From Crinalium sp. (lineage in GTDB: Bacteria > Cyanobacteriota > Cyanobacteriia > Elainellales > Elainellaceae): DNA of 64,000 nucleotides. A model generated the notes under the pieces. It was given only the letters and a program-made list of their open reading frames with translations, searched no databases and had not been told where the DNA came from. The position numbers and the translations under genes were made by a program. Every line of letters starts with the position of its first letter. Within the stretch, counting starts at the first letter, position 1. Positions 9,741-44,100 of this stretch are shown here, piece by piece. The stretch covers positions 3,822 to 67,821 of the forward strand of contig DATNPS010000014.1 of the NCBI GenBank assembly GCA_036703095.1. Direction: 5' to 3'.

Positions 9741-9862
9741 ACTGAACAACTTTTGATTTGTTGATGAGCTAAGCGTTGCGATCGCATGAGTTACAGGTTT
9801 GATTTCTTGCAGAACATTTGGTAGATACTCCGTTGGTACACAGCTAGACGTAGGACTGCAAA

Positions 9863-10597: not shown

Positions 10598-10600
10598 TAA

Positions 10601-10696
10601 CTAAGTAAGTAGAAGGGCTACTTACTTAGGTAACCAGAATTAAACAACATTATAAAAACCGGGGGAGTGCTCCTTCGGGGCACTCCCCCGGTTTTT
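10601..10696. repeat. Tandem hairpins after the regulator gene: CTAAGTAAGTAG-AAGGG-CTACTTACTTAG (10601..10629) and AAAAA-CCGGGGGAGTGC-TCCT-TCGGGGCACTCCCCCGG-TTTTT (10654..10696)
   Basis: Both stems are perfect. The second is the same family as 1997..2037, and the first matches the TAAGTAGG/CCTACTTA arms that flank that copy. Confidence 0.6.
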
Positions 10697-10764
10697 AATT
10701 ACGACCATCCACTTATCATATTCAGTCTTTTTTCTGTTCACACCATTAAGGAAAACTCAAAACT

Positions 10765-17397: not shown

Positions 17398-17995
17398 CTA
17401 TCGGACTGCTGTGAATTTGCGGAGGGGTTGGATAACCACCAGCATGAACCGTCCAGGCACATCGACTTTGAATTCCACCATCGTTGCAACCTCAGGAGGA
17501 ACATTAGTCGTCTGGACGTTGGTCATCGGTGCAGAGGTGAGTGAGGCTTCAGGGTAAACGCGATCGAACACTTCACCAATCATATGGAAGGCAGAAGTAT
17601 AGTTCGGGCCACCAACGCCGAAGAAGATGCGAACCGTTTCACCGACTTTGGCATGAAGGGGAGATTTTTCTGCCAGTGCTTTCGATGCTCCATTGAACAC
17701 AAAGTAGGAAGGTTGTTCGCTCAGCAGCTTATCGACGCTGAATTCTTGGTTACCGCGATCGCTAGCCGCTTGAACCGTATAAAGTTCACCTTGCATCACG
17801 TAAAATTCGCGATCGACTTTGGATAAACCACCTTCGGGTTCTACCAAAATCAGACCATACATGCCATTGATAATGTGATGTGCCACCATTGGCGTTGCAC
17901 AGTGGTAAACATACAGGCCAGGGTTAATGGGCTTAAAGGTAAAGACTTTTCCATCACCCGGAGATGCTTGCGTCAACGCTCTTGAGCTAGCGTTG
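17398..17995 (-). pseudogene. nirK: Copper-containing nitrite reductase (NirK) remnant, truncated at both ends
   Basis: The 192-codon ORF begins at TTG. It contains FKPINPGLYVYHCATPMVAHHIINGMYGLILVEP (the His-Cys...His...Met copper-ligand loop) and domain-2 sequence up to VEFKVDVPGRFMLV. The first ~110 residues, which carry the N-terminal Cu-ligand histidines, are absent. The C-terminus diverges (VVIQPLRKFTAVR) where VDH... is expected. Confidence 0.75.
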
Positions 17996-21177: not shown

Positions 21178-23016
21178 TTAAGCCACTACAAAGTGACTTG
21201 CATTAATAGTACTACTTAAGATATTTTGCAGAGTTACGAGTGGTATAAAAGTTGCACCAGCACCGCTACCATTTACATCCATCATTACCTTGGTATCCAA
21301 TCCTATCTGTTCTAACCTAACAAACTGGCGTAAGGAGGTTAGCGGATGATTGCCGCTAAATTCAGGTCTCGCAAAAATTCCCACTAGATTAATGAGATCG
21401 TCTGCTGGGTTGAAGTCTTTTATCGCATCTTCACCCTCGCTCACACCGTTATAGGTAAATATGTCTCGACCCAGACCACCTGTTAAAATATCTGCCCCTA
21501 GTCCCCCAACTAATACATCGCTTCCCCGACCTCCTAAAATTTTATCGTTACCGCTACCACTATCCAGCCAATCATCGCCATCCTGTCCATCAAGATAGTC
21601 CTTTCCGTTACCCCCATAAAGGCGATCGTTTCCTCGCTTTCCGCTCAGACGATCGCTATTGTCTAAACCACTCATGACATCATTGAAATTACTGCCCATC
21701 AACTTATCCGCTTTCTTCGTTCCAGTCAGCGTTCGAGGTTTAGGACGAGTTTTAAAGACAATGGGTGATGGTATTGCACTGGGGAGAATAGTGTCTCCCT
21801 GGAAAGAACCGTTTGCAGAATTGAACCCTGATGTGACAAAGTTCCAGGTCTGTGGCGTAGCCTGTCCTGTAGACGTATTAGTTGCCAGATCTTTGAATGC
21901 ACCAGGTGTATTTGTAATGTAGTAGTTCGTGCCAGGTTGCAGTAGACCTGCTGAATCTATTGTGACAACCAGATTGTCGGCACTAAGGGTAACTTGACCG
22001 GAGTTAACGTCAATCGTTGATATTAATGCATTGTCAAACGATCGATAGATCGAAAGGCTTCCCGCGCCTTTGAGAATAGGTTTGGTGAACGTTAAGACGG
22101 GCTTTCCAGCAGCGTCAGTTCCGTTAAACGTAAACGCAGAAGTTGGATTAGTGGAATCTCCCACTAAATTCAGCTCTACTGTCGCTCTCACTTGAAGTGA
22201 GGATTCACCCAGCATTCCACCGTATTCAACAAAGTAACCTTTAATATTGGGGTTTGTGTTCGCTAAATCATTCCATTGTCCAGCAAACTGTCCTGTGCCC
22301 AATAAATAACTATAGTGTTCACTGCCATTAAAGTTATTTGGCTCGGTGGGCATCCAGTTGGTATATGCTCCGTTTAAAGCGCTGCCTGCCTGTCCCTGTC
22401 CGCGCCAGAACAGTGTTCCGGTTTCTGGCCCGGTTGCCCACTGCCAGTCGCCTTCTTGTTGGGTATCGCTGGCACCAATCCAACCATCCTGCTGAAAGTT
22501 TTTGACCAAAAATTGATTTTCTGCGGGACTGGTTATAGTTGCTAAATAACCTTGTAGCCCAAAGAAATTTCGGCTTTCAGCCGTCGTTTTTGCTGTTTCC
22601 CAAGACACAATGCCAGGAACAAATTCATAGAAACGATCATTGGCAAAATCGGCGATCGCTTTACCTAATGAGATTTGCAGCTTGCGCGCGCTTCCTGCAT
22701 TCACGGCTCCCATGCTGAAATAAGTGATTTGTCTTAGAGCCGCTTCATAGACCTCGGTTGTTGCAGTGCCCGTCAAAACCAGCTTTCCTGCACTCGTGTC
22801 ATAGTTCCATGCTAAACCGTTGACAGTGCCGCCAGTAGAAATTCCCTGTCCCTGAAAACCCAGCCGATCCGTAGTGGCAAAGCCATCTGTTAAAGTAACA
22901 ATCGCTCCGTTAAGAGTGGTGGTGCCATTGGCCGCGATCATGAGAGTGGGCGCGATCGCCTGTGGAATAGTGCCGTTTGCGACGACAGCACCAGATGCAT
23001 TAAGAATGGGTGACAT
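21178..23016 (-). CDS. Secreted C-type-lectin-domain / Ig-like / RTX calcium-binding protein with type I secretion-style C-terminus
   Basis: 612 aa with no signal peptide. The CTLD (aa ~127-266, nt 22219..22638) reads SWETAKTTAESRN...GYLATITSPAENQFL...GWIGASDTQQEGDWQWATG...WMPTEPNNF...GQWNDLAN. An Ig-like segment covers aa ~280-400. The RTX repeats are GGNGKDYLDGQDGDDWLDSGSGNDKILGGRGSDVLVGGLGADILTGGLGRDIF. The tail DAIKDFNPADDLINLVGIF...ASHFVVA resembles the VC_A0849-type T1SS target domain. Confidence 0.85.
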   Translation of the reverse strand: MSPILNASGAVVANGTIPQAIAPTLMIAANGTTTLNGAIVTLTDGFATTDRLGFQGQGISTGGTVNGLAWNYDTSAGKLVLTGTATTEVYEAALRQITYFSMGAVNAGSARKLQISLGKAIADFANDRFYEFVPGIVSWETAKTTAESRNFFGLQGYLATITSPAENQFLVKNFQQDGWIGASDTQQEGDWQWATGPETGTLFWRGQGQAGSALNGAYTNWMPTEPNNFNGSEHYSYLLGTGQFAGQWNDLANTNPNIKGYFVEYGGMLGESSLQVRATVELNLVGDSTNPTSAFTFNGTDAAGKPVLTFTKPILKGAGSLSIYRSFDNALISTIDVNSGQVTLSADNLVVTIDSAGLLQPGTNYYITNTPGAFKDLATNTSTGQATPQTWNFVTSGFNSANGSFQGDTILPSAIPSPIVFKTRPKPRTLTGTKKADKLMGSNFNDVMSGLDNSDRLSGKRGNDRLYGGNGKDYLDGQDGDDWLDSGSGNDKILGGRGSDVLVGGLGADILTGGLGRDIFTYNGVSEGEDAIKDFNPADDLINLVGIFARPEFSGNHPLTSLRQFVRLEQIGLDTKVMMDVNGSGAGATFIPLVTLQNILSSTINASHFVVA

Positions 23017-23080
23017 AATTTAGTTGAACCTGAAATATTGCAGCACTTTTAAAACTTTCAAACAGAGTGAAATAGCTAAA

Positions 23081-23135
23081 CGTCTGTCTTGAAGTTGATG
23101 GAGAAATCCCCAACGAACGTACTTCAAGACAGACG
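23081..23135 (-). terminator. 15-bp perfect stem (CGTCTGTCTTGAAGT / 25-nt loop / ACTTCAAGACAGACG) between the giant gene stop and the lectin gene start
   Basis: Arms 23081..23095 and 23121..23135 are exact complements, positioned 10 nt downstream of the giant-gene stop on the minus strand. It could be a terminator, attenuator or RNA-processing site. Confidence 0.45.
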
Positions 23136-23144
23136 CTCAGCGTC

Positions 23145-26100
23145 TTAAATGCGAGGTCTACGGCGAATAATGATATTTTTGCCTTTCCCTGCGGAGATCT
23201 TGACGTGACGGGAGAAGACTACGATTCGGTCATTTCCTCGACCTGTGCGGATGATGCTACGACCACGACCCACTTGAATACGATTGTTGCCATTGCCAGC
23301 CGTAATGCGGTTATTGCCATCACCAACCGTAATGTGATTCGGGCCAGTTCCAGTCGTAATCCGGTTATTACCATGACCAGCGGCGATCGCCTTACGACCA
23401 TTGCCTGCTTTAACGGTATTGTTACCGTTACCTACGATGATGATGTCAGTTCCTTTGCCGGTGATGATTTGGTTATCGCCTTGACCTGCGATTACAGTAT
23501 TGTTTCCGCTGCCTGCGTTAACCACATTATTCCCTTCACCCGCTGAAATAACGTCAGCACCCTGTCCGGTCACGATCCAGTCAACACCGCTGCCAGCCGT
23601 GACATTGTTGTTCCCATTTCCTGCATTAATGGCATTTGTTCCATCTCCTGCATTGATCTGGTCATTGCCATTACCCGAGGTGATCTGATCATCGCCACTG
23701 CCTGTCAGAATGACATTATCGCCTCCACCAGCACTCACAGAGTTGTTGCCACTACCTGCATCAATCACGTCATTGCCAACTCCGGTGAAGATGGCATCAG
23801 CTCCAGTACCAGCCGTAATGTGATTGCTACCATCACCCGCATTGATAACGTTATTGCCATCGCCCGCGTTGATTTGATCATCACCACTGCCAGTTGTAAT
23901 CTGGTCATCACCAGTCCCGGTCGTGATCGTGTTAGCACCCTCGCCTGCGCTGATCGTATTGCTACCTTCACCCGCATTGATCTGATCGTTGCCACTACCG
24001 GACGTGATCTGATCATTGCCATTACCCGTTGTGATTTGGTTATCACCTTCACCCGCATTGATGGTGTTGTTGCCGACACCTGCATTGATGACGTCGTTAC
24101 CACTACCCGTGATGATTTGATCATCACCCCGGCCCGTGAGGATGGTATTGTTGCCGTCACCCGCCTGAATCAGATTGTTTCCATTGCCAGCCTGGATGAC
24201 ATCGTTACCGCTGCCCGTGGTAATTTGATCATGCCCATCACCTGTTGTAATCGTGTTGTCGCCTTCACCCGCGCTGATGCGATTGTTGCCGCTACCAGCA
24301 TTGATGGTGTCATGGCCACGACCAGTCGTCATCGCATTGTTGCCTTGACCTGCGGTGATCCGGTTGTTACCGTCCCCTGCATCAATGGTGTTATCACCGT
24401 CACCAACCTGGATGACATCATGCCCGGCTCCAGTCGTAATGTTGTTATTACCTTCCAGATCCAGAATGGTGTTATCACCCTGACCACCTTCAATACGATC
24501 ATTGCCACGGAGTCCCTGAATGACGTTGGCTTGGTTATCTCCAATGAGGTGATCATCAAAGTTAGAACCTTCCAGGTTTTCGATCGCAAAGTAGAGATCT
24601 CCTTTCGCTGCACCACCCAAGCCCACTCTCTGGGCAAGGTCAACCACAACCCCTTCAGTCGCAGTAGCGTAGGAAGCAGTGTCAGTTCCCTCACCACCAT
24701 CCACAATTTCAAAGGGATTGACGGCATGAGCGCGACCGCTATCGATTACGTCATCGCCCTGGCCGCCAAACAACATGTCGTTATCGTCTTGTCCAAAGAG
24801 TGCATCATTGCCCTCCTCTCCCAGGAGCACGTCATCACCTGCGCCGCCAAACACGGTGTCGCTACCCATCCCTGCATAGATTGCATTACTGCCCCGATCG
24901 CCAGTAATGGTGTCGTTAAAGGCGCTACCCAAGACGTTCTCAATGGTTTCTAGAGCATCAGTGCCACCGAAGCCATCCGTTGCTGTACCCGTTGCTAAAT
25001 TGACCGTGATGCCAGATGGATCTCGGCGGTAGTTGACTGTATCAATCCCCGCACCACCCTTGAGAGTATCGTTGCCCTCATTACCTAGCAGCAGGTCATT
25101 GCCACCCGATCCTTCAATCACGTTATCGGACGCGTTGCCAATTAAGACATCATCATGAGTGCTACCAGTGATGTTTTCCAGTCCCGTCAGGCGATCGTAG
25201 GTGTTAAAGCCATCTTGAGCCGTGCCTGTGTTGGCTACAAAGCTGGTTTCGATGTCACCCAGCAAGTAGTTGAAACCTGTGGTATTGGGATTGCGGTGTT
25301 GGTAACGGGAGCTTTCATCCAGGTTGACGACTGCACCTGCTACCGAGTTGTCGTAGCTAACAGTATCGACACCTTCGCCACCATCGATCGCATCATTGCC
25401 ATCATCACCCCGCATCCAGTCATCACCAACACCACCCGCAATCTGATCGTCACCGGATTGTCCGTACAGGGTATCGTTGCCTGCACCACCTACAATCACA
25501 TCATTGTCTGCACCGTTTCCGGGCAGGAAGTTCATCAGTGTAGTCCAGACGGTGCCAAAGAAGCGTCGTACCTTCGCGTTGCCGCCCGTGATGGTATCGT
25601 TACCACCGCCGACCGAGAGGTTGTCGTTACCAATTCCGCCAATCACAACTTTTTCACGATTGTCGGTGGTATCAACCACATCGGCTCCACCCACTTCCGT
25701 ATTGGTCGAAGTAATTTCAAAGCCCTCGCTATCGAAAGTGACGGTTGCCTCATCGCCAAAGATGACATCCGAACCTGTTGTTGTAGGATTGGCAGTCGTT
25801 TGAACGCGATCGCCGTTTGCTCCAGCAACCACGATATTTTCACCACCACCCAGACTAAACAGGTCAGCACCACCTTCTCCGATATTTTCGGACTGAGCCG
25901 TCACAACCCGTCCCGTTGCATCGACTTCAGCAGAAGCATCATCACCAAACAGGGTATTCGTGCCACCATTCGCGACGAACTGGTCATTGCCCACACCAGC
26001 AATCGCTGTTGTCGTACCGCTATTCAGGGTGAAAGTGTCTGTGCCACCCGCAGTAAAGTCACTGCTGGTGATTCTTTGGAAGTCACCCGATTCATTAAAC

Positions 26101-29100
26101 TGGGCGATCGCGTTGTCTCCCGTAATAATGGCTTGAGCAGACATTTCAGTACTGGAAACCGTAATGGTATCCGCTCCTGCGCCTGCAACAACAACGTTGT
26201 AGCCATTGGTAATCGAGACGGTATCCGCACCACCCTCTGCTGGGTTCAGAGACTTCACTTCAACCCGCTTGCCAGCGTTGAGCGTGACTTGACCTTCATC
26301 CATCAAGGTTAGGTTCGTACCATTGTTGGCCGTCAAAGTATCGTCACCTGCACCAGCGATCGCGGTATTCGTTCCGTTTTCCAAATGGATGGTGTCACTA
26401 CCACCAACCCCGCTAGCGGTGGACGTGAGCGTTTCTAACCGACCCATTTCATCAAAGGTGGCTTGAGCACCATCGGTCGTGAAGATGTTGGTTCCTCCAC
26501 TAGCCGTGACGGTATCGTTACCTGCGCCTGCGATCGCTGTCGTATTCCCGCTGACCAGGTTGAACGTATCGGCCCCACCGATGGCATCGTTGCTGCTGGT
26601 GATGGATTGGAGGAGTCCAGTGGCAGTGAACTGAGCGATCGCGCTGTCGCCCGTCACAATTGCCTGAGCATTCTCAGCGGTGCCATTGGTCGTAATGGTG
26701 TCGTTACCCGCACCCGCGATGACTACGTTATAGCCGTTCTGGATGTTGATCGTATCGGCACCGCCCACGGTTGGATTGAGCGATTGCATCTCTGTCAGAT
26801 TGCCTTCGTTGAAGGTTGCCTGACCTTCATCAGCATTGAGGCGATTGAGTCCACCCTTGAGCGTCAGAGTGTCATCGCCAGCCCCGGAAATGACGGTGTT
26901 CGTGCCGTCGGTAAGAGTGACAGTATCGCTTCCGGCAATGCCGCTTTGAATGGTTTCTAGTTGGGTCAGGTGTCCTGCCGCATTAAAGGTTGCCTGAGCA
27001 CCGTCGGTGGCAATCGCATTAGTGCCTCCTGTTGCTGTTACGGTGTCGTTTCCTGCACCAGCGATCGCCGTATTGGTACCGCTACCCAATGCGATCGTGT
27101 CTGCTCCACCTGCTTCAGGCTGGATACTGCGAATGGACTGTAGCGTACCGTCTGCGGTGAACCGAGCATCACCGTTGTCACTTACCAGGATGGCGATCGC
27201 ATCTGCTCCACCATTCGCGGTAGTGATCTGGTCTGCCCCTGCTCCCGTGATCACGACGTTGGTGCCGTTGCTGATCGTCACTGTATCCGCGCCGCCCACG
27301 GTTGGATTGAGGGATTGAAGCTGACTTAGATGACCTGCCTCAAAGGTTGCTGTTGCGTCATCTGTGAGGACGTAGTTGGTGCCTTTGGTGAGAGTCACCG
27401 TATCTGCCCCTGCACCTGCAATCACGGTGTTCGTACCCTCATATAGCTCAATCACATCGTCACCTGTTGCGCCGTTGATGGCACTGGTAACTCGGCTGAT
27501 GAGACCGTTGCTGGATTCAACCGTACCTTCGTCACCCAAAATAACGGCATGGGTGTCTGTAGAACGCTCGATAATGATGTGATCTGCACCGCCATCACCA
27601 ATGACCGCAAAGCGATCGAGCGACTGAAGCGATGCTTGAACCATGTCATCGCCTGTACCCGCATGAATGAACAGGTCGCCATTCTGAGCATTGACTTGAA
27701 TTTGATCGTTACCCGCCTCGGTGTCCAGTTGCAGGATCGTCTCGTTGAGGTCGGCAGGGGTACTCGTGTTGGCGATCGCCACCTGATCATTACCGCTGCC
27801 CGTCTTAACGGAAGACTCAACGCTGACAGACTGAATCGCAAAGGTGTCGTTACCAGAACCCAACTGGAGATTTACCTGATCGATGCCGCTATACTGCACA
27901 CCGATCGCCATGCCGAGTCCTGTCACTCTAGTTGCGGTGAGCTGACCGCTGTTGTCGGTGATGTCTCCACCATCGTTGAGGTTAAGCGTGTCGGCCCCTG
28001 TGCCACCTTCGATAGTGATGTGATTGGCGATCGCATCCAGCACCCCTTGAGGATTGCCCAGATTAACGGCATCCGCGCCATCGTTCGTCTTCAGCAACAC
28101 ATCACTGGAGGTGCTGTAGATGTTGAACGTATCGTTGCCAGTCCCCAAACGGATTTCGGTCGTTTCCAGACCACCATAGACGATACCCTGCGTCATACCC
28201 AATCCGGTGAGGGTAGAGTTTGTAAGGATGGCGCTGTTGTTTGCAGTATCACCAGAATCGTCTACTAACAGAAGATCTTGTCCTGTTCCACCTTGAATCG
28301 TTAGCAGAGCCGCGATGTCGTTTACCGTGTTGCTGGTATTGCGGATTTGAATCGTGTCGTTGTCATCACCAGCTTCAATGGTGGTCGCGTTATTGATGGC
28401 ATTGACGATGACCTGGTCATCACCCGCTTCTGTAGCAATTCGAGTGACAGCATCCGTGTTAAGCAGGGTGAAGATGTCATTGCCTGCACCCGTATTGAAG
28501 TCAAGGGTGCCTGTTGAAGTATTGATTAGCGTAATGATGTCTTGATCGGCTCCGAGATTGACAGCAATATTTTCTATGCTGTTGTACTGGAAACGACTAT
28601 CCAGCCCTAACCCTTGAATTGTGGTATCAGAGATGGAAATCGTCTCGTTGTAACCCAGATGATCTGCAAAGTCGAGCTTCAACAGGTCATCCCCACCATT
28701 GCCGCTAACCGTCAGTTGATAGTTGAAGTTTGCATCCTTCAACGTAAAGACGTCGCTACCGCCACTTAGGCGTACATCTAGATGTTGGAACCCGGTGTAG
28801 CCGAGGCTGCCCCGGTTCAGTTCCAACAGATCACCGTTCACTAGAGTGATATTGGCGGGTTCAACACTGTTGCTGTAGTCCACCTTGACGGTATTCTGCT
28901 GTCCGGCAGTAGTCAGGTTGAGCTTGGTGATGATGTCTGATGCGACCTGAGAGGTGTTGTTACCTGTTCCCAGATTGATATTAAGATTTTCAATCTGACG
29001 GTAAGTTACCGTGCCTGTCATGCCTGCTAGACCGCTGATCTTGTCGATAGTGACTTTCACAATCTGGTCAGCAGGATTGGCACTGTTGTCGATATTTAGC

Positions 29101-32100
29101 GTGTCGTTCAGGTCGTTGCCATCAACCGTGATGGACGCTTTAAGTTTATCAACAAGGTGATTTTCACCCAGGTTGATGATGTCGTCGCCGCCCATACCGC
29201 TGATGGTGGTGGCACTGTTGGTAGCCGTCAGATTAATGGTGTCGTTGTTCAGGTTACCGCTGATGATCAGACTGCTGCTGTTAAAGCTGCCGTCGAGCTG
29301 CATCAAGCTACCCACGCCCACGTCTTTATTGGTGGCACCAAAGTCACCTTGAATGATGATGCGATCGGGAGTGGTAATGGTTGCGGTGCGATCGATGGTG
29401 ACGTTATCGCCTGCCAGCAAGCTGATGTCGCCCTTCGTCGTGCGAATCGTAACTCCTGGGTCGATCGTCAGATCATCCCCTGCGGTTACCCCTTCACAGG
29501 CTCGCAGCGTAATCGTATCTCCTGCAACGATGTCGTTAGCAATAATCAGTGGACTGTGAGTTTCAATCTGCACCGCCCTACCCACAGTAATCGCATCAAC
29601 GGTAAGTTTGCCGTAGTTGCTCAGGTTCACTGAGGTTCCGGCGGCCATCGTCACGGTATTAAGGGTCGTTTCCAGGAGGTTAGTAACGCTGCCCACGCCA
29701 GCTGTGGTATTGGTCGTCAGGGTGTCTGCGATTAAATCGACTACGCCATCACTGAATTCGCTGTTAACCTGGCGAGCGGTGAAATGAACCGCATCGCTTA
29801 CAACCGTCCGACTCACGGAGATGGTATCTACAGCGGCAACGGTGAGGTTACCATCAGAAATCGCGACGTTATCCAGCGTTAGGGAGTTGGCTTCACGAAT
29901 GGTGAGATCACCCGTGTTGAGAATGGTTGAACCCAAACGATTGACATCGGTGGTGACATTAATATCGCTGAGGGCTGTCAAGTTCAAATTGGATGCTACC
30001 AGGGTTACGCCGTTAGCCGTGGTAATGTGTCCTCCAAAGAACTGTCCTTGAGTGTCAAAGTATCCCAGAGACGAGAGGGAAAGGGATTGGGCTGTGGGTG
30101 CGCCAATGACATTGATGTCAGCCCCACTGGTGATGTCTACACGGGTTCCCTTCAGGTCAGAGAAGCTGATGTTGCCCAGGTCACGCTGGGCCTTGATTGC
30201 GATCGAATCGGCAATCATCGGGAAGCCAAGGCGTGGATCACGCAGTTCGCCCACGGGAACAACAAGCTGCACACCCCCTGCCAGTTCTTCCTGCATCTTG
30301 GCTTGCAGATCCAGCGAGGTCGAGTTCACCTCTGTGAAATGGATCTGAACATTCTTGTACTGTGGATTTTGTTCCGCAAAGCGGCGGTAGTCTGACTCGG
30401 TAGAGTAAACCAGGGTGTAGGCAGATGTATCTACTCGGGTGCTCGTCTCCAGAATCGCTGAATCCAGCACTCTATAGACGTACAAGCCTTCTGCATTTTG
30501 ACGGGTGTAGGCTACGGTTCCATCCGGTTGTGTCCGATAGCGATCCTGTCCATCTGGGCCTTGATAAGTGACGTTGCCATCGACGCGATCGCGGTAATAT
30601 TCCCGGCCATCATTGCCAATGAAGACATACCGACCGCTCATCGATTCGCGCACTTGATAGCTAGTCATGTTCAGTACGGGAGCCAGTCGCAGAGCCGACA
30701 CCTGATCCGCCGCTATGGCAACTAGATTGCCACCCATTTCCTGGTAGACCTTGGTTCCCTGTCCCAGTTCAGCCTGATCCAGGTAGTAGGTTTCCTGGGT
30801 GTTGATATCGCGATAGCGGTAGTATCCAGCCAGATTACCCTCCAGCACCAGGTTACCCCGTGCTACCAGGCTGACCGTATTTAGCGGAATGGCTTTACCA
30901 TCACTGTTGGTAAAGGTTTCGGGAGACACAATCAACGTGCCCGAACCCAGTTCCAGCGTGAGATCCTTGGTGCGAATGTTGGGCAGTTGCACTGAACCCT
31001 GGAGAATGCCCGATACGCCCGAACCCAGGTGCATATTGTCTGCGTCGAGAGTAACGCTGTTATCAACCGTCAGCAGACCTGTCGTGATCAGGCTCAACGT
31101 TTGGGTCTTGAGCAGGCGATCGCTACCATCCTCCGTTGGACGAATCAGCATATTGCCTGTCCGGCTGACCAGTTCAATGCTGCCTGTGGGCGAAGATTCC
31201 AGATGAGCAGTGGCAATCAGATCATCGTGGGTAACCACACGGATGTTGCCATTCAAAGCAATCAGTTGCTCGAGGCTAAGGGCGTGGGGTTGAGCATTGT
31301 TGACATCGATGATGATGTCACCTTGGGTAGCGATCGCAGACAGCTCGTGCGTATCGATCTCCGGTGTGTTCAACCGTCCGACGTTCATTTCGATGCGGTT
31401 GGCTCGCAGGTCGGATTCACCATCGTCGGGAGTCGTAGCAGCGAGAGTACCACCTGCGTTGAGGACAATCGTGCCAAAGTTTATGCCTGCATCCACCAAC
31501 CCCAGAGTCATATCTCCACCCGAATTCAGGCGAATAGACTGCGCTGGAGCATCGTTATTCAGACGTAGTTGACCTGTAGTGAGAGTGCCAGAGGTGGTCA
31601 GGGTGAAGGTACCACCATCGCTGCTGCTGTCGTGCAGTTGCAGAGTGGCAGCGGTGTTCGACAGCGTGAAGGTACGGGTTCCCAACGTTTGAACGGTGAG
31701 GTCAGATACAGCTGTCGTCAGGTCAGTATTGCCATTGACCACCAGACTGAGGGATTGGCCATTGATACGGCTGCCCGTGTTCTTCAATGCATCCCCCTGG
31801 ATGTTGAAGGCGATCGCATTACCTGCATTCAACGTACCGTTTGCAGTAAAGCCAAGGCCGTTTTGCAGCACATTCATTGTCACGTCATGTCCAGCATTAA
31901 TCCGGTTGAGAATGACGCGATTGGCAGAGGTGATGGTGACATCACTGCCTGCGGTGAGCTGTTGCAGTTGAACCGCACCCACAGAATTGAGTGTGATGCT
32001 GCCTTGAGTAGCCGAGAGGGTTACGTTGGCGATCGCACCATCTTGTTTCGGTGCAACCGTGGCATTCACATCGCTGGTCGCGCTGGTTGCCGTCAGTTGA

Positions 32101-35100
32101 GCACCCTTCAGGTTGGTGGAAATCGCACCATTCGCGTTGAGCGTTACCGTATTGCCTTCGATCAACCCATGCTGCGGCGCGGTTTCACCATTCACCGTCG
32201 TGAACTGGTAGTTGCTGATGCTACCCGAATTGGCAGTCAGTTGAACCGTACCACCCTTGATCCAGGAACCGGGAAGGGCAATATTTCCAGCGCTGTTGCC
32301 TGCCGACAGAGCAATCTGTCCAGTAGTTGCGGTTTGCAGATAAACAAAGTCGTTGCCCGTGATGTCACCACTGCCAGAGGTCATGCCTGCCGTCCCGGTA
32401 ATGCTGCCACCTGCCAAGATTTGACCCGTCAGACTAAGATTTGCTCCAGCGTCTAGAGAAACCTGACCGTTGCCGCTGGTAGGATTGCCAGCGATCGCCA
32501 GCCCCCCAAAGTTCAGATCGCCTGTTGAATGCAAGGTAATCTGGCTGGTGTTGCTATCGGTTCTGAGTTCGCTCAGGTCGCGAATGGTGATTTGATTGGC
32601 AGTAATGGTCAACGCATTTTGGGTGCTGAGAACAGCAGGAGCGGCGATCGCATCCGTTACGCCCTGTGGCAGTTGCCCTTTGATTTCAGCGGTACCGACT
32701 GCGTTCACCGAAATCGTTCCAGCAGTTCCTGTGGTGCTGAGTTTGGCACTGAGGACGACGTTTCCACCCGCATTAATCGAAATCAAACCCGCAGATCGAA
32801 TCGAGTCTGCTCCAAATGCACCAAACGCTTTCTGGTTACTATCCGAGTTTTGCTCGGTTGCCCAAATCAGTTGATTTTGGATGATTTGATCAGTGCGGTA
32901 GCGAGTCTGAATGGATGTCTCAACATTCTTCGTCACGAAGTCGCGAGTTTCATAACGCGGACGATTATTAAAGATATCGTGCGAGTTGCTGACCCACTGA
33001 TAATTTAGTGTTAGGCGATTGTCATAAATCTTGCTGTACTTCGACTCCCAATTGTAATAGTAGTCTCGGAATGTCTCGTAGACATCTGCTGTTTTTGTCC
33101 AATATCCATTCGAGTTAATTTGATAGTTGAGTATTCCTGATGTATAGCCTGTGTAGCTTTGAGAACTTTGAATTCCTCCTGAATTGGAATGGGAACCCAA
33201 AAAGTCATTACCGCCGTTAAGTCCTGAATCTTCTTCCCAGAAAGTCCAGTTTAAATTCCAACTGGAGTCGTAGCGAAGTCCACTAGCCGATGCAAGGGTT
33301 TGATAAGTGGAACCACCCTGTGAACCACCACTCCATCTCCAATCAACAATCCCTGAAGATCCTCCGACAGAACCATCAATGTGATACCAGGGCTCCTCAG
33401 AACCTACTTCTGTATCAATGTTAAATGAATAACCAGTCAGGATAAGGCTGGCATCGTACAGATACTCCATGCGATCGCCCACATCTAGGGTCTGGCTACC
33501 TGCTAGATTTTGGGTATTGATCAGACGGCTGGTTGAGTAGTATTCGCTTGGTGCATAGGTGCGAACACTATTGAGGTCAGTTCCATTCTGCAAGGTGGTT
33601 ACGCCAGCCCATCCCGGAAGTTGGAAGTGTTGTACAGCATTCGTTCCAGTACGACCATCGAAGATGGAATACCAGCGTTTACCATTATCAACGTAGCTGA
33701 TTTGCCAACGATTGGGTTGGTTGTCACTATCGGTCTCGTAAATGTATGAGCCAGACCAGGCTTGATGGGTAGACAGAATTTGGTCGTACAGCACCCTCGA
33801 CTGATCCCAGTAATCACCCACGTATTCACCTAAATTCTTGGTTGTGTCGTTGGGATTGATAGGATTGCCAACATTCAGTCGTGCTTCACCCTGAGAGACA
33901 GCCCGTAGCCAATCGTCCTGCGCTCCATTCGGTAGACGGATGTATTTATCCTGCAAGCCATCCAGATTGATATTGACGATCGTTTTGGCATTGTTGACCC
34001 AGGATGGAGTCCAACCAATTTCAGTTGGATTGCCATTGACCGTCAGTTCGGTCTTGTAGTTGCTGGAACTAAAGTTGTATAGCTTCTTGTATCCCAACTG
34101 AGCAATGACAACATCTCGTTGTGCATCTGTGAGGTCATTGAAGGTGTAGCCAGGATTGGTTGGTCTACCAGCCGCCCCCCAGTTGATGCTGTCGATGGTG
34201 TAATCAACCTTGTTAACAAACCATTCCTTCTGCGTACCCGTTGTGGCGTTGTAGTAGCCATCCTGAGTCAGAGTGACATCCATTGTGAAGAACTCGTTGC
34301 CAACCTTCACCGTGTCAAAGCCAACCTGTTCGTTAGCTGTCGTAGGAATCCAGGAGACTACAGGAACAGCGATCGTTCCATCTGCCACCTGGCGAGTACC
34401 CGTCACCACAGAAACGATCATCGGATGTTGCGAGAGGAACGGCATCACATCAGACTTCGTACCGTTTTGTAGAGTTGAATCAGCTTCGACGCTGACATTG
34501 CCACCTGCCAGCAGCGACACGTTACCCGATGCATCCAGGAAGCCACTGGTACTGAGCAGGATATCGCCACTCGTGAGATCGGTACGGCTGAGGGTTCCCT
34601 GTAGTTTTGTGATATCCCAACCGAGATTGACACCGGAACGAACGTCTAGATTGCCGAGCGATCGCACCGTTCCAGTCACCGTTACCTTCTCAGAAGCATT
34701 TAGCAGAATGCGGCTGTTTAGACCGCCCGTAACGGTTCCATCAATCCACATTTCGCGGCTGGTCATGTCTACTAGACCAATCGCTTCAACGGAGGCACGC
34801 CCACTGAGGTAGCCATTGCGAGCAATTAAGGTGCGATCGCTACCCACCATCCGAATCTTGCTGCCATCAGCGTAGGTCTTGATTTGTCCTTCGCCAATCA
34901 CATTCAGGTTGTGACCATTGAGCGTGATGCTATTTTGTGCACCCAGGAAGCCGTCAACAGTGACGTCACCACTGCGGCTCGTGACCGAAATGCGATCGGC
35001 GGTAACGGTTGCGCCATTCCGCCCTACAGTTCCTTCCAGGACAATGTGACCTGTTGCAGAGAGGTCAATTGTGCCACTCTGAGCAACGTTTAACGTACCG

Positions 35101-38100
35101 CCACCCAACCGTTCTAGATTAGGATCTGTATTGGAAACAGGGGATGTTCCCTTGGTTAGCAGATTGCCTGTTTCATCGACATACTGGCCCGATGCATCCA
35201 CATAGACGTTAGAGGCATTGATCAAACGGCCTTGAGAATTGCGGTACATCACAGGTTCTACAATCAGACCGTAGCCATTGCTGTTCTGTCCACCATTTAA
35301 GGTCAGGGTCTTGTCTGTCTTGATGAAGCCATCGACCAACAGCAGTCCACCAGATTGCAGGGTGATAGTAGACCCAACATCCTCAGTGGTCATAGAACCA
35401 TAGATTTGAGCATCGCCAACCGTATTGAGGGTAATGCTGGTAGAGTTACCGCTATCAATCTTGTTGGTTCTCAGGAAACTGTCGCTAGAGAGGCTAAAGT
35501 CCAACAGAGTTGCGCCACCTTGAGTGGTGATGGCAATGCTTCCCGTAGACTCAATCGAGCCACCTCGATGCACCGAGTTACCAGTCTGATCCACGCTCAT
35601 ACCACCCAGGATCAGTGCATCACTGGCAGTCACGTTTACAGTTGCCTGTGCCCCCGTCCAGGCTAAGCCAGATTGGGTGTAGACTGCACCTGCTTGCAAG
35701 GAACCGATCAGGTTGATCCGGTCACCCACAACCGTCAGGGTGCTACCATTGCCACCCGTCAGAACTTGTACACCTGCGCCGATGTTAACTGCACCTGCGC
35801 CTTGTAGGGTGATGGCATCCACGGCTGAGAGGAGTGCACCCTGTTGCTGTGATACACCGTTCACCTCAACGAGTTGACCGAGAGCGATGGTGCCTCCCAC
35901 ATTGGTTTGGACTAGACGCAGGGTTTCACCTGCTTCAGTAACAACAATCTGACCGTTGTAGAGGGCGATCGCATTTCCAGCCTGCACCAACACAGAACCT
36001 GCACTGACCAGATCCGCCGTGATGGTTGCATTGTGTTCAGCTTGAATTAGCACCTCGGTTGTGTTAGAAGTGCCATCGGCTTGAGTTTGACGGACGACAC
36101 CCAGTACATTTACGTCTGTCCCTTGAATCCGAATATCGGCGCTGCTGACAATTCGACCAGAAGTACGGGCGATCGTCGTGATGCCGTCAGCGGATTGAAT
36201 CGTGATGTTTTCTAGACGATTCGTTTGTTCCCCAATCGAGCTGTCGATAATCACATCGTTCAAGCCCGCTACTGTAATGGTGCGTGCATCCAGACGGCTG
36301 GTGCCAAAGGTGTGAACGCTAACGTCACCAGGAGTAATCACCTGACCACCAGACAAACGAATTTCGTCCGTTGCCGTCAGACTGCCGTATAGTTCCAGCG
36401 TTGCTTCCGAAGACAGAATGATGTCAGAACCTGCGCCACCCGCGATGATGTCACCGCGAACTACGCCGAACTTGCCGACGTTCATGGCGATCGAACCGTT
36501 GATGGTTTCCAGTAAGCCAGTACCATCTAGTTCGATGTCAATGCCATCCGGCGAAGTGCCGCTGTAAAGTTTGATCTCGTCATGAGCTAGCACTTTACCT
36601 GCGATGTACAGTTTGCCATTCGGGCCGAGAGGCGCACCAATCGAAACCACCGAACCTTGTTCTTTCGCACTGATCGTGTAGGGTAGCGAGGAAGTCAGGT
36701 CTGCGGTCAGGTTGGTGAAGCCCAACTGATCGGCATTGCTGGAACCCGCTTGCATTAGCGTGAACCCGTAGGGGCCAGCCAGCAGGAAGTTACCGTTATG
36801 CAGTTTGACGGTCAGATCGCGATCGCTTTGAGACTGGCTATAGCGGCTACCCAGTGGATGATCTGTATTGTCGGAGCGAACAACCGTCCAGCTTGCCGAA
36901 TCCAGTGAGGATTGCAAGTCTGCCATCAAATCCATGATGGTGGTATTGTCAGCGGTCGCACTGGCATTCAGAACAACCGTCGTTTCGATCTCAAAGTCCA
37001 CTTTGTTAAGGCGAATCTTGAGAGCAACATCCTGCGTCAACTGTCCACTTGACCGTGGAACGAAGCCCGTTGCCACAATTTCATTGGTATGAGCCGGAGC
37101 AAGAATATCCACACGCCCGGGTGCATTCAGGTTGATCTGGCTATTCTCGCGCCAGGTTTCTAACCGGGTAGAGCCGTAGAGAACAATGCCTTTACCGGAA
37201 TGGGGGACTCCCGCTTCTACAGGGTCATTGCCACCCACCAGATCAATCTGCTTGCCTGCACGGAGGTCTTGACCAATACGGATTTGGTTATCGGCCTCAA
37301 CCCGAATGGTGGAATTGCCATTGAAGTGATTCACCTGACGCCCCAGATAGATACCGTCGGCATCCCGGACGTCTACAATATCACCACCCGGCAACACCAG
37401 ACCTTGAATATCTGCATCGCTCTTGGAGCTAATGAAGATACTGCTATCCGGTGTATGAGTCACCAGTTCGCTAGATCCCTGGACGAAGACGCCCGTGCCC
37501 GTCGTTTGTTTGCCGATCACCTCAATGCGATCGCTCGCTATCAGGTACCCGCCTGTCTGAATCGTTTCACCCGCTTTGTTAACGGTATTACCGCCAATGA
37601 AGGCTTGTCCCGCTGCTTCTATATGAATCAGACCTGTATTGCCTGACCAGTTGATCGTTTGGGACTTGAGTTTTTGATTCTCAAAGGTTTGGAACAGTTG
37701 ACCACCCGCAACCAGCCAACCCATCGTCTCAATGTTGCTGGCGCTATAGACATTGATCGTGCCACCGCTGTTATCGGAGGCATAACCTGCGGCAGTAATA
37801 CCGCCTGCGGTGTTGATCAACACGCCTAAACCGCGATCGTCTGCTCCAGCAATGCCACCTTGGACAGTGACCGACTTGGAACCTAACAGACCGGAATCCA
37901 GGTAAATCTGCTCTCCAGCCGTTACAGTAATCCCCGCATCATTACCCGCCCAGGTCACACCATTGGCACCAATCGAGCCACCCGCAACCACAGCACCGAG
38001 GATATCCACATCCCTGGCACCCTGAATCACGATCTGGCTACCTGCTTGCCGTGTGGTGGTGCGAGCGGTGTCATGGATGTAAACGCTGGAACCCTCGCTG

Positions 38101-41100
38101 CTAGATCCGCCTGTGGCTTGTCCCTGAGCATCAAAGCCACCCTTAATCGTCAGGTTGTTCTGAACATCCATCCGGCCCTCGTGGTAGACCCAACCTGCCG
38201 AACGCACGTTCAGGTTGGAGTTCTGACCAAAGACATTGATGTTGCCACGGATAATGATGTCATCTTGAGCGACCAGATCCAGCGTGGTGTTGTCGGCGAG
38301 ACTGGTCAGTGTGCCTGTTATCAACAGGCTGAACTGATCCTCATGGATGCGCTTCAGGTACTGGTCATTCCCCTTTGCATCGACAGGTAATTGGCTGAAG
38401 TAGCTGTCATAGTAGTGGTCGATCGGGGTGCCTGCGGACAACAGCATTTGATCGCTGGTCGTGACCGTCCCTTTAATCACCAGTTCACCCGGTGAAACGA
38501 TGCGGGCATCAGCTCCTTCGCCTGTCTTAATGGGTACAGGGGTGTCGCCAATGGTTTCAAAGCGTGCTCCGGCTGTAACGGCCCCACCCGCTTCAATGGT
38601 GACAATGCGACCTGCGGCAATATCAATTTGACCTTCATTAGAACGAGCCGCAATCACTCCGCCTTGCATGACGGTGAAGTTGGTTGTAGCAAAGAGGTTG
38701 ATGGTGGAATGGTCACCCAACGCCTCCACTAGACCCGCAATCTTGCTGTAGTCCGTGGTGCGAGAGTCGATCGAGCTACCCGGTTGCAGCGAGGTAATGT
38801 CGCTGCCAATGTCAGTAATCAGTTGATTGGCGCGAATCATGACGGTTTCCGCTCCACGCAACCAACCGCTGACGGTCATCTGCTCGGAGATCTCCATGCG
38901 CAGATTGCCCGCTGTAATCCCGGCTCCGGGTACGAGGAAATTATTCTGACGGAAAATCTGCGCGTTGCTGGCTTTAATCGTCAAATTTTCTCCAGGGGCC
39001 CGAGCATCACCGCGAACCTCTAGGCGATCGGTCAGCAGGAACGTTGTGTCACGGAATTCGGGTTGGAGGGCATTGGCAGGACGAGCACGAAGGACGCCAT
39101 CGGTGCCTCCCCGGACAATATCACCCTGGAAGATGTCGCCAATATCCATGAAGTTGCCCGCATCGCGACGACCGATGGTGACGGTGGAGAAGCCATCCGC
39201 CAGGGCCGCCAAATCTCGGTTGGACAACTCCATAGCAGGGCCATCATTGATACCCAGGTCGATCCAATCCTGACCCAAACGATTTTCGGCAGTGCTACCC
39301 AGACGATATAGTTCTGTGGTCTTATAAGCCTGGAGAACGAGATCGCCACTACCCGTAACATGGTTGATGCCACTGCGGAAGTCCATATCGTCCGCTGTCA
39401 GGGTGATATCGCCACCGAATTTCTCGTTTGACAGGAAGCCGCTGTCCAATCGCAACAGGGCATCCTCGCCCTTCATGGTGATGGTGATATCTCCATTACG
39501 AATGGCGATCGCATAGGGGTCATTACCATCCGTAATCAGGCTGCGCCAGTCAGTGCTAAGGTTCTGAATCCACTGCGTATTCGCCATCCATTTGGGCGTT
39601 TCGGCCAGGTTGGGTAGCGTCAAGCCAGAGTTGACAACAGGTGCGGTTTTCTCGATATTGGTCAGCGTCAGGCTGTCTTTCTCAACGATCACCAGATTAC
39701 CAGTGCCATGCTGAGATGTAGCAGCAGTAAGGGTTGCCACATCGGTCAGTAATGCAGCCGTAGACGTACCGAGGGCATTCTTCGCCTTCAGGATCAGATG
39801 GCTACCGCTACCCAGAATTTCGGACTGATTGGTGTTCACGACCGAACCGTCGGGCGTGACCAACCGGACAAACCCGCTTCCCTGTCCGTCTTCGCTATCT
39901 CCGGTAGATACCTTCAGATCCGCAGACAGCCAGATGCTCGACTTGTCGCCGTAGGTGCGCAGATCGATATAACCATCGCGAACTGCGTTCAGGGTTTGAT
40001 TGACGCGAATATCCTTAATCGTTTCAACGATGATGGCATCAGAGTTAATCTGGCTCTGGAGAGTCGCCTGATTAGCGACCACACGCACATCTGTGTTGGC
40101 ATTGCGCGTGATGTTGTTGAAGTCGGTGTTGGTAAGCGTAACGTTACCACCAAAGTCGAGGATATCGGTATTGTTCACCTGAGCGGCTCGACCGATGATC
40201 GTCAACCGATCCAATCCACTGGTGTAGTTAAGAATTTCGCGGCCATTCAGGAGTTGCCCCTGATTGAGAGCGATCGCACTCTGCATAAACTGCTCCGCAA
40301 TCACCTCATCAAAGGCTCCCCCCCGATCATCCAGGTTGATGATGCCCTGACCTACACCTTGAGCACGACCTAAGCGCATTCGATAGGAGTCGTTGCCCCC
40401 GATATCGTCGATGTAGATGGTGCGATCGCCAAAATCGGTGACATTCATCACGTCATCGCCAAGCCCCATCATGATGCGATTAAAGGTCTGGTTACCAACG
40501 ACTTCATTGCTAGCACCCTGGTTGATGGTAAATCCACGACGCGTCAGGGTGACATCAATGCGACGAGTCGCCTGACTGAAATCAAAGGCTTGAATACCCT
40601 TGCTGTCAATCAATCGATCCAGTCCAAAGTCATCGCCAAAGGCGTAGGTATCATCGCCCTCACCGCCTGCCAGATTATCAACCCCTCTACCCCCATCAAG
40701 GATGTCATTGCCCAGATCGCCTGTCAGGCGGTCATCATCATCCCCACCCCGGAGAATGTCATTAGCAATACTGCCGATCAGCTTGTCCTTACCGGAACCG
40801 CCAATCAGGGTTGCTCCCTTGAAGGCGTTGCGATATGACGCATACCGTGAGGCGGTGTCATCAAACAGCCAGGAGACAGACGCATCCATGACATCGTCAT
40901 CCGCGCCACCATCGGCAATACCGCCTCCTGCGCCTAACAGCAGGGTGTCTTTTCCTTCACCACCCGTCAGTTCAACACCAATGTCAAACAGGCGAGTTGC
41001 ATCAAAGGTGTCATCGCCAAGCCCACCATCGGCTACCACTTTGGTGACGCCCGTAAAGGTTTGATAATAGCCATCAAACTCCACGCTGACCGTATTGCCC

Positions 41101-44100
41101 TGGCCGTAGAAGGTGAAGGATTCACTCATATCCTTCAAGCCATCCTTGGTGCTGCTATAGCCCCGCAATCCAGCCCGACTACCGCTGTTGATGTACAGGA
41201 CACCGTCGATGATTTTACCCAGGTGAGGTTGTACCTGAGGTGCATCGTACTGGAACTCGTAGATCTTGAGATTATTCAGGACTTTCAAGTCCAGTAGTCT
41301 AATTTTCTTAACGAACAGGTTGGCATCCAGGAAGATATTGGCAGAGAGGCTGATATCACCGTGAATATTGGCTAGGTTCTTGATACCGCCAATGCTGCCA
41401 TCATCTTCAGGATCGTAAGTCCACATGGTGGCAATTTCAGACATGCGGATTTTGCCATCGCTTTCCCAGGTCTGATTGGTAACAAAGCCCAAACTATCCT
41501 TCGTCAAGGTGGACTTAGAAATATCTTGCAGGTCAATTCCCACACGAGCTGTAATACTGCCACCGAGTCCCGCTTCCAGAATGCCAAGTTGCAGGCTCGC
41601 TTCCAGGCCAATCGTGGCACTGAAACTAAATTCATCTTTTTCGTGAGGCTTCTCACCCTTGCGAGTCGGAATCGAGAAGTCCGTGAGAAAGAATCCATCA
41701 AAGGCATCCAGCGGATTGTGGGAGGTAATCGCTTTACGGATGCCGTAGGTGTCATAACCAAAGCCCAGGTCAGCAACGGCAGAGAAACCACCCTTCGCGT
41801 AAAGATTGAGGTTGATCGGAGGTGGCGTCCAGATGGGGACTGTTGCCAGCAGTTGGGTAAAGTCCTTACTGAACTCCAGCAGTGGCAATTCGTAGGTAAA
41901 CAGCGTGGCATCACCGCCTGTCAGCAGAGCTTTCCAGTTGGAAATGTCTTTGATGTACTCCAGAATTCGGAAGCCCGATCGCGGTGTTTTGGTGACGGCT
42001 GATGATTTACCGGGTGTTGCTCCGGGAACATCCTGCCGCGTGTTTTGGTTGAGGAAGTCTTGCAGTTCAGGCGCGATCGTTTGAGGAGCCGTAGTCGCCG
42101 TTGTCTGCACGTTGGCCGTACCCAAGCCCATAATGTCGCCCAGCGGCAACCAGTCACCTGCCTTCAACGAACCAAGTTTATCCACCAGCCCTAACATTTG
42201 TTTCGCTTCATCAATGAAGCTCCAATCGATAGGCTTCATTCCCTTCAGCAGCAGGATTTGATTGATTAATCCCTTGAGGGTGGGGTCGGAAGGAATAATT
42301 TTCTTGAGTCCACCGATTGGCTCAGAGAGCTTATCGATCATCGGTCGCATGGGTTCCAGCGCATCCGCGATCTCCCGTGCAATAGGCGTCATGAAGTCGC
42401 TAATAAAGCTGCCCATGTCAATCCGCATATCGCGCAGACCGAAGCTGGGAGCCGCCATCTTCTGACCCAACTGCCATTTCCAGTCAAATTCCAGATCGGC
42501 CCCAAGGCGAGGGAGTCCTTTTGGCCCTTCCAGTTCAAGCGTGACGCCTAAGTCGAGTTTGGTGTCTACGCCAAACTGGATGGCAAACACATCTTTGGCA
42601 CTACCAGAGAACAGCTTGCCGAGTGGCAAACGACCGCGAGCATCACCCTTGAGGTCAACGGATAGACCACCGTAGATACCGCTAGCTCTGCCGTTGGGGT
42701 TGTTGTCTTGCAGATGAGCTTTGAAGAATAGCAGCTTACCATCCGCATTAAACGGTGTAATAACATCAGGATTAGTTGGGCTGCCGTCCAGATAAGCGCT
42801 GATGCCCAATTCGATTTCAGGGGTACCGTTCTTATTGGTAGATAGGTAGAAGCTATCTTGCAAGCTCAACCCAAAACCAAAGTCGAATTTCCAACCGATA
42901 TCTAGCCCAAAGCCACCATTCACATCCAGGCTGAAGCCAGGGAGGCTAAAGTCAAGGGGCAGGTCAATACCAGTACCGACTAGACGCCCCCCCAAATCCA
43001 TGTCGAATTGAATAGCATCGGCTCCAGTGGGTAAGGCTCCACCTAACACCCAGGGTTGCATCAGGTTACCCAGCTTGTCGTACCAGCCGATCTGCACGTC
43101 ATCAATAGTGATGCGGCTGTCGTGGTTCAGGTCAAGGATGAGATTGAGCTTATCGGGGCCAAGAACGTTGTATAGGGTTTCACGCAGGAATTCGATCGCC
43201 TTGCCATTGCCACTTAATTTCTGACGCAGATCAGACAAAATGCCCTGCCGCATGTCGCGCAGGAAGGATGCCGCATCGCCTAACTTACTGCCAATCAGAG
43301 GAATGTCTTGTGCCAGGTTAGAATCCAACACTTCCTGGAGAGTGCCAACGGAAGCATCAATGCTGTCCAGAATGAAAGAGGGATCATTGATTAACGACAG
43401 CAAGGAGAACTGACCACCCAGCAGATCAAACTTGCCCCGAATGTCGGGAAATTGCATTTCTAGCGGTTGGGCAGCACCCTTGTCTGGTGAATTCGCCAGA
43501 TGTTTGAATAGTTGCACCAACCCCTGATCGCCGTACACGGGATTGGTTTTCACCTGGATGGCTTCCATGTCGAAGTCCATCCCTCCAATTTCCAGCCGTA
43601 CTGGCAGATTGATGTCAAAACCACCCGTTAGCTTGGCACTGAAATTGTCTGAGAAAGATTCCTTGCCAATGTAAAATCGTCCATCATCAGGAGTTGTGCC
43701 CGCTTTCTGGTCGATCGCCACCAATAGACCAGCATAATCCTTCGTGTCTGCTCTACCATCCGCATCCAGAACTACCGTTCCCCGGTTGATTCCGATATTG
43801 ATCGGGCCTGCCTTAAAGTTCAGATCCATATCAGTTCCTACTAAACGGGCACCCAATTGGGCATGGGTACCCGTCTGAGTCGCTGCATCGTAATCGCGCA
43901 GGAAGATCTTCGGATCGCCCTGGAGCAAGCTATTCATATCGATGCCAATGTCGAAGTTGAGCTTGGCGATCGCCTCCAACGTCAAATTTGCTCCTCCTTG
44001 CAGATCGATCAGCGCATCGATCGCATCCAGCGCCACAGCACCCGCATTGCCAGACAGTTGCTTCAGGCTATCCAGGTCAAGGTTAAAGTCAAATTTGTCA

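Follow-up and report, generated by a model that had tools for sequence, protein, structure and literature searches.

A 64,000-nucleotide stretch of Crinalium sp. DNA (GCA_036703095.1, contig DATNPS010000014.1, positions 3,822 to 67,821 of the forward strand), hereafter the window, carries on its complement strand a single giant open reading frame (ORF) of 11,769 amino acids in the ORF list (23145..58454), and the element considered here is the C-terminal tail of its product. By its sequence, this tail is a repeats-in-toxin (RTX) repeat array. With moderate confidence, it can be read as the Ca2+-binding RTX module of a giant acidic protein that a filamentous cyanobacterium places on its surface or outside the cell and that is built like a substrate of a type I secretion system (T1SS). 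The RTX array itself is of a known kind; what is new is its continuation up to the C-terminus, together with the loss of the canonical C-terminal domain and a basic peptide that closes the protein. All coordinates are window positions, and all features of the giant ORF lie on the complement strand.

The array comprises 48 in-phase units (23163..24458; amino acids 11333-11764), predicted to form a continuous beta-roll rod, of the form G-x-G-(N/D)-(N/D)-x-I-x-(A/T) and with zero indels. When the last 437 amino acids are cut into nonamers, offset 0 yields 46 G-x-G units and the remaining offsets yield none. Glycine occupies position 1 in 46 of the 48 units and position 3 in 47, position 4 is Asn in 23, Asp in 9 and His in 4, position 7 is Ile in 42, Val in 5 and Met in 1, and position 9 is Ala in 25, Thr in 15 and Val in 5; the outward-facing strand positions 6 and 8 are rich in Thr, Gln, Asn and Ser. 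Position 5 of this numbering corresponds to ligand position 6 of the canonical nonapeptide GGxGxDxUx, whose first Gly is here Ala or Thr. An Asp ligand is found not in every unit but in 18 of 48, with Asn in 27 and other residues in 3. Three degenerate units in the same nine-residue phase (24459..24539; amino acids 11306-11332) lead into the array, and before them the translation contains canonical GGxGxDxL blocks (24540..25649) with Pfam and NCBIfam RTX matches, separated by linkers of the type xDTVSY...IENxxGSxFxD. At its distal end, the array stops five residues (RRPRI) short of the TAA stop codon. An earlier note, made from the letters of this stretch alone, had described 48 phased nonapeptides without indels, the replacement of the position-1 Gly by Ala or Thr, the frequent use of Asn in place of the ligand Asp, short and interrupted canonical blocks at about 24460-25650, and an array reaching to within five residues of the stop; the single register, the counts and the translation bear out this description throughout. 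The same note had named assembly noise as a possible refutation of the array. This artefact is excluded, since a contig from a separate metagenome assembly (L001; Joint Genome Institute, JGI, 3300037473) is identical to the window across the array, with one mismatch in 5,887 nt that lies outside it at position 20151, and since the DNA copies have diverged, Tandem Repeats Finder giving only a 108-nt period at 68% match.

The assignment to the RTX beta-roll register, also proposed in the earlier note, agrees with several comparisons. Pfam PF00353 (HemolysinCabind) matches the 437-residue tail alone in 17 stretches, with a score of 281 bits where the cut-off is 23 (E=1.4e-85), and a search of the last 1,151 amino acids against NCBIfam (E<=0.01) returns RTX families only. 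The closest solved structure by sequence is the CyaA RTX domain (7usl_C, 2.8e-14), with HlyA, a lipase and serralysins also matched. The structure prediction that the note had suggested was carried out with single-sequence AlphaFold2 (AF2), and places a strand every nine residues with a predicted local distance difference test (pLDDT) of 70-90 from about amino acid 11412 to about 11750, in a model that contains no ions. The tail is predicted to form one continuous beta-roll. Foldseek searches with this model rank CyaA RTX 7usl_C first and the Ca2+-dependent MpAFP beta-helix 3p4g second to fifth, at template modelling (TM) scores of only 0.17-0.22; these matches fit the RTX family, but their scores are too low to fix the geometry of the roll.

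The order of the ligand residues bears on Ca2+ competence. Along the array, position 5 reads NDNNNDNN, continues through seven D-D-N-N periods and passes into a degenerate end; counted by phase, 11 of 12 residues are Asp in one phase and 11 of 12 are Asn in two others. Autocorrelation of the tail has maxima at lags 36, 72 and 108 and not at other multiples of 9, which agrees with the 108-nt period of the DNA and gives a repeat of four units, or 36 residues. In addition, an acid (Asp or Glu) stands at position 2 in 13 of the 27 Asn units as against 1 of the 18 Asp units (p=0.003). When 25 other mixed-array proteins are pooled, the corresponding figures are 299/529 for Asn and 97/536 for Asp units (odds ratio 5.9, p=1.4e-39), a total dominated by the 262-unit array of protein P0121 (109/148 Asn units versus 1/114 Asp units); taken singly, 11 of the 25 show a significant effect, among them P0151, P0170, P0190 and P0201. 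The Ca2+ ions of alkaline protease are bound between consecutive turns, each ion being ligated by a side-chain oxygen of the position-6 residue in both turns; the side chain of Asn347 in AprA is itself such a ligand, and GGXGX(D/N) is counted as a Ca2+ site (PMC3034196). At two units per turn, an assumption taken from RTX precedent, the D-D-N-N order would supply each inter-turn site with one Asp carboxylate and one Asn carbonyl oxygen, and the acid at position 2 would restore the charge. Since one Asp is kept at each presumed site and an acid is added at position 2, most of the array probably still binds Ca2+.

The earlier note had also considered an uninterrupted roll of about 24 turns unusual, which stands as to the uninterrupted run and only in part as to its rarity. 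When 1.84 billion cluster representatives were scanned in full with HMMER, 102,075 matched at E<=1e-3, of which 5,165 reached E<=1e-30; among the best 150 of the 102,075 matches, strictly in-phase runs of at least 48 units occur in 5, one of which has 262, and runs of at least 30 units in 14. The length of the array is by itself not unusual, long uninterrupted arrays being common in metagenomic giants, and the same array type is widespread in unrelated organisms. In P0121 (5,960 amino acids), the 262 strictly in-phase units occupy residues 237-2603, at the N-terminal end of the protein, which shows that mixed D/N arrays need be neither C-terminal nor linked to T1SS export.

What sets this protein apart is the way in which it ends. 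Six relatives (P0271, P0273, P0305, P0315, P0335 from Trichocoleus desertorum, and P0389) are 42-51% identical to it over the pre-array blocks and the array, and carry 25-30 in-phase units of which the distal 17-20 or so follow the D-D-N-N order with the position-2 acid rule. In cyanobacterial relatives, the array is followed by a C-terminal domain of 72-75 residues (127 in P0360) ending in FTFV, FSVV or TTVA, while Massilia proteins that combine DUF4347 with RTX repeats carry classic C-terminal domains ending in ..TDFMVI. A hidden Markov model (HMM) of the relatives' C-terminal domain finds nothing at the 3' end of the giant ORF in any frame, and its only significant match in the window is the neighbouring 612-amino-acid protein (E=4e-5); the domain is hence truly absent rather than frameshifted, which makes the contrast with the usual T1SS ending stronger than the earlier note could tell from the letters alone. 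A frameshift or read-through was considered and rejected: the other 3' frames have stops or no similarity, no remnant is detected by the HMM, and the downstream gene lies in another frame with its own promoter-like site.

The last 95 amino acids (23148..23432) consist of about ten degenerate units followed by RRPRI, and contain 19 Lys/Arg and 2 Asp/Glu (net charge +17, pI ~12). The last 60 residues, which had been described as strongly basic, indeed hold 15 Lys/Arg against 2 Asp/Glu (net +13), and the 342 residues of the tail that directly precede the last 95 have a net charge of -36. In the basic units, Arg or Lys occupies loop positions 2 and 4 (GRGRS, GRGND, GKGKN), and these units are modelled as a continued roll to about amino acid 11755, with pLDDT values of 83-91 per block through amino acid 11752 and 67 in the next ten-residue block. 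The extreme C-terminal peptide RRPRI (23148..23162) is preceded by ..IIIR. The tail translation lacks a hydrophobic helix as well as PEP and LPXTG motifs, and among the NCBIfam models run on the last 1,151 residues (E<=0.01) none of the known sorting signals gave a match (PEP-CTERM, LPXTG, GlyGly-CTERM, the type IX secretion system C-terminal domain and the TIGR03661-type T1SS target domain). Searched against 5.8 billion proteins, the 95-residue basic tail gave two candidates and no homologue; this word-indexed search listed nothing longer than about 1.75 times the query, so that giant orthologues were beyond its reach. Furthermore, a metagenome scan with the last 120 residues gave generic RTX matches only, at 32-42% identity and none with a basic end.

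Two orthologous lineages share the truncated architecture. In Cronbergia sp. UHCC 0137 (L002), a 45-unit array ends seven residues before the stop and is followed by ..NDIKKFKPQVEE-stop, and a complete protein of 6,878 amino acids from a JGI metagenome (P0411/P0170) ends in ..NDTKKFK with a real TAA (L087). P0411 starts with M-S-LND.. and continues with DUF4347, like the window protein; L002 is cut at its 5' end. Both orthologues have the RTX blocks before the array and then a long terminal D-D-N-N array of 43-45 units, with a stop within 4-9 residues of the last unit. In a three-way alignment, identity over the last 700 residues is 53-68% among the lineages, and the indels are whole units of 36 and 54 amino acids. 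Their ends read RRRPRI in Crinalium, KKFKPQVEE in Cronbergia and KKFK in the JGI protein, and in all three a cluster of 3-4 Lys/Arg follows directly after the last unit; the last units of the two orthologues are ordinary and acidic, and only their final peptide is basic. A genome scan with the pre-array region returned 77 loci, among which Cronbergia alone shares the terminal array, the remaining loci having runs of 2-20 units and mostly classic endings. As a separate observation, a set of short RTX-array proteins (P0051, P0052, P0084, P0101 and P0116) end a few residues past the array in Cys...Cys-Glu-(Leu/Tyr/His), with endings such as ..TVTSCEL, ..AKCEL and ..VVNCEY, and an ORF at locus L080 ends in ..KTGCEL; this class may be another non-canonical C-terminal ending.

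To our knowledge, it is not yet settled what constitutes the T1SS signal, and these endings allow a further explanation beside that of a Ca2+-binding T1SS-type module. A new C-terminal sorting or retention signal, of the kind that the earlier note had also suggested, may have replaced the T1SS domain, consisting of the basic peptide (in Crinalium, of the whole ~95 residues) and acting through a different transporter or as an electrostatic tether to anionic lipopolysaccharide, sheath polysaccharide or another surface. Such a signal would account for a domain that is canonical in relatives and missing here with no frameshifted remnant, for the Lys/Arg cluster directly past the last unit in all three orthologous lineages and for a +17 patch on a protein of net charge -643; moreover, the neighbouring RTX gene keeps the ending ..HFVVA, so that the genome would use both kinds of ending. 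This explanation must be set against the small number of lineages, three in all with the extended basic region in just one, against the lack of a match to any known sorting-signal family and of a candidate transporter or partner at any of the loci, and against the known lack of sequence conservation among T1SS signals (PMC8870123), given which the basic tail could be an ordinary divergent signal, unusual in appearance and conventional in function. On this evidence, a new signal is a possible but rather doubtful explanation. A related and similarly tentative proposal, which we rate as unlikely, is that the orthologue group represents a class of giant RTX proteins whose canonical T1SS cap and signal domain gave way to a roll running to the end and a basic peptide that serves as a distinct export or retention signal; in Crinalium, the last turns with their Arg/Lys would in addition form a Ca2+-independent cap from which the folding of a Ca2+-dependent rod is nucleated.

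Alternatively, Asn ladders and hydrogen bonds could replace the metal throughout the array, making it the Ca2+-independent beta-solenoid that the earlier note had envisaged. The excess of Asn over Asp at the ligand position and the lower acidity of the array relative to the canonical blocks point in this direction, as does the folding of the array by AF2 without ions, although AF2 does the same for HlyA (PMC8870123). However, the D-D-N-N order leaves each presumed site with an Asp, the loss in Asn units is offset by an acid according to a rule that is kept in unrelated proteins, and Asn is a proven Ca2+ ligand at the equivalent position, as Asn347 illustrates (PMC3034196). The same array also occurs in proteins with an ordinary export domain, and the profile match to Ca2+-binding RTX repeats is very strong. 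A metal-free solenoid is therefore improbable and is not upheld for the bulk of the array; Ca2+ independence is possible solely for the last 8-10 or so basic units.

Evolutionary decay, in which a truncated 3' end would leave the last units drifting and the basic tail without function, is likewise improbable. It would explain why the canonical domain is missing relative to the paralogues, why the tail sequence is unconserved outside the Crinalium metagenome-assembled genome (MAG) and why the last units are the most degenerate. Yet the reading frame is intact over 11,769 codons, the truncated architecture is common to three lineages, one of them represented by a complete protein, and the G-x-G...I register persists in the degenerate units, for which the model predicts a roll; in addition, a net charge of +17 in a strongly acidic protein would be hard to reach by neutral drift. 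Finally, a ligand- or ice-binding face on flat, Thr/Asn/Gln-rich sides of the roll, like region IV of MpAFP, is very improbable, for the MpAFP matches in Foldseek and the Thr, Gln, Asn and Ser at positions 6 and 8 are offset by low TM-scores, by the lack of a regular Thr ladder (Thr at position 2 in 3/48 and at position 8 in 15/48 units) and by the wide occurrence of this array type in unrelated organisms.

On the preferred reading, in which the tail is a Ca2+-binding RTX module of a T1SS-type substrate, about 19 of its 24 turns would fold on Ca2+ outside the cell, and the folded tail would be a stiff rod of about 11-12 nm and ~24 turns, assuming the standard beta-roll rise of ~4.8 Å per turn. 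Folding on Ca2+ would drive or ratchet export with the C-terminus first, as in other RTX proteins. The last five or so turns, which have Arg/Lys loops and almost no carboxylates, would probably neither bind Ca2+ nor need it to fold, and may form a built-in C-terminal cap that nucleates folding and takes over the capping role of the lost domain. In CyaA, folding starts from the C-terminus and depends critically on a C-terminal capping structure. The short basic C-terminal peptide would then be the likeliest recognition or retention determinant of the orthologue group. Several observations weigh against this reading. The canonical T1SS C-terminal signal, expected some 50-75 residues long past the last repeat, is absent, and neither the 64-kb window nor the neighbourhood of the orthologues contains cognate T1SS transporter genes. 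The +17 patch is private to the Crinalium MAG and is not found in the orthologues, so that any role assigned to it depends on one genome, and the shared basic cluster is seen in three lineages only. Moreover, the Foldseek TM-scores of the tail are low.

Comparison with known systems places the protein close to, and yet apart from, several groups. With the beta-rolls of serralysin and alkaline protease, HlyA and CyaA it shares the GGxGxDxUx register, the PF00353 match and, in CyaA, the closest structure; it differs from them in having Ala or Thr for Gly-1, D-D-N-N ligands instead of Asp throughout, 48 uninterrupted units where theirs come in blocks of about 5-10, no domain for capping or signalling at the C-terminus, and a basic final set of some ten units. 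The cyanobacterial relatives (P0271 and others) resemble it in the pre-array blocks, the D-D-N-N order and the position-2 acid rule, but combine ~17-20 D-D-N-N units with a domain of 72-75 residues, whereas the window protein has 48 units and no such domain. Oscillin of Phormidium uncinatum, likened here by its description only, is also an RTX protein of rod shape found outside a cyanobacterial cell, and its 646 residues contain 46 repeats (PMC3034196), nearly as many as the present array, but it is a small stand-alone protein that forms surface fibrils, while the array is here the tail of a chain of 11,769 residues. Giant RTX adhesins such as LapA, MpIBP, SiiE and FrhA are likewise giant and acidic, with a long extender of tandem repeats and a C-terminal RTX module; in the window protein, no N-terminal Sec signal is apparent by eye. 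Unlike these adhesins, it has no C-terminal signal past the repeats, and its extender repeats have no Ig-like match in Pfam. Its N-terminus is a DUF4347 domain and not a LapA-type retention module; by inspection, to which no retention-module model was added, neither a LapG-type site nor LapD/G genes were seen.

The giant protein as a whole is acidic (net charge -643, pI 4.3). The annotated TTG is probably not the real start, Met7 (MNLND...) being the likelier one, and the N-terminus (MNLNDSLQPTDNSHELLGQ..) has no hydrophobic stretch by eye. It is followed by a DUF4347 domain (57642..58103; amino acids 118-271; Pfam E=4.5e-55), which also heads DUF4347 and RTX proteins that have ordinary C-terminal export domains. 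Two residues of DUF4347 are invariant, a His in ..(I/V)SHG directly behind a predicted beta-strand and a Cys in ..LLYGC directly behind the long strand that follows, and Foldseek searches with an AF2 model of the domain give weak legumain and caspase matches mixed with Rossmann-like dehydrogenases (E 1e-3 to 3e-2, TM 0.3-0.4). Residues and matches together suggest that these giant RTX proteins are headed by a clan-CD-like cysteine peptidase or autoprocessing domain; in the literature searched, the term DUF4347 occurs once in the full text of each of four papers and in no title or abstract, and a preprint on giant genes has no bearing on the question. Between the two ends, the extender consists of tandem repeats of ~111 residues at amino acids ~300-5000 (autocorrelation 0.23 at lag 111) and of ~177 residues at 10000-10950 (0.32 at lag 177), and comparison of both repeats with Pfam gave chance-level matches only and no family, Ig-like included.

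The cyanobacterial origin of the window follows from its excess of the HIP1 octamer GCGATCGC, with 75 copies against 1.1 expected, and two neighbouring proteins are exact matches to HEY9618854 and HEY9618860, recorded for a MAG as TPA: Crinalium sp. In a plasmid collection, a single 94-nt match, to Kovacikia, was the only one. Genes for ATP-binding cassette transporters, membrane fusion proteins and TolC-like outer membrane factors were found neither among the ORFs of at least 150 amino acids in the 64 kb nor beside the orthologues. The gene downstream of the giant ORF (21178..23016, complement strand; 612 amino acids) lies 128 nt away in a different frame, with a promoter-like site at 23061>23034, and encodes C-type lectin, Big_5 and RTX domains (Pfam). 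Its canonical end, ..HFVVA, means that the Crinalium genome encodes RTX proteins with a canonical ending; the lectin-RTX protein may be a functional partner of the giant protein or a mere neighbour. An inverted repeat of 21 nt (23075..23141; 90% complementary, 25-nt loop) starts 4 nt past the stop of the giant ORF and has no T-tract, and a terminator scan of this region called no intrinsic terminator. Elsewhere in the window, a 192-amino-acid ORF (17398-17976, complement strand) matches only positions 100-292 of the 326-position model of copper nitrite reductase and is possibly truncated or mis-started. It adjoins a full-length quinol-type nitric-oxide reductase, NorB with a cytochrome-c-like domain (18478-20787, forward strand), and the pair amounts to denitrification-type equipment in a cyanobacterial MAG. 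At the JGI orthologue locus L087, a 1,105-amino-acid ORF (6426-9743, complement strand) downstream of P0170 and two small ORFs are all without a Pfam match.

For the most part, the tail is a long but otherwise ordinary RTX array, and nothing known is overturned by it. Its significance lies in part in the comparison that it offers, as paralogues combine this array with the canonical domain and three orthologous giants lack the latter, a natural test of the role of the C-terminal domain. The basic last turns are a candidate for a self-capping roll end that needs no Ca2+. Furthermore, the D-D-N-N order with its compensating acid, found across many unrelated proteins, points to an unrecognised rule for mixed Asp/Asn arrays. 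This rule suggests how metal sites can persist in a beta-roll that has only half the usual number of carboxylates, and it matters for the engineering of Ca2+-responsive beta-roll materials.

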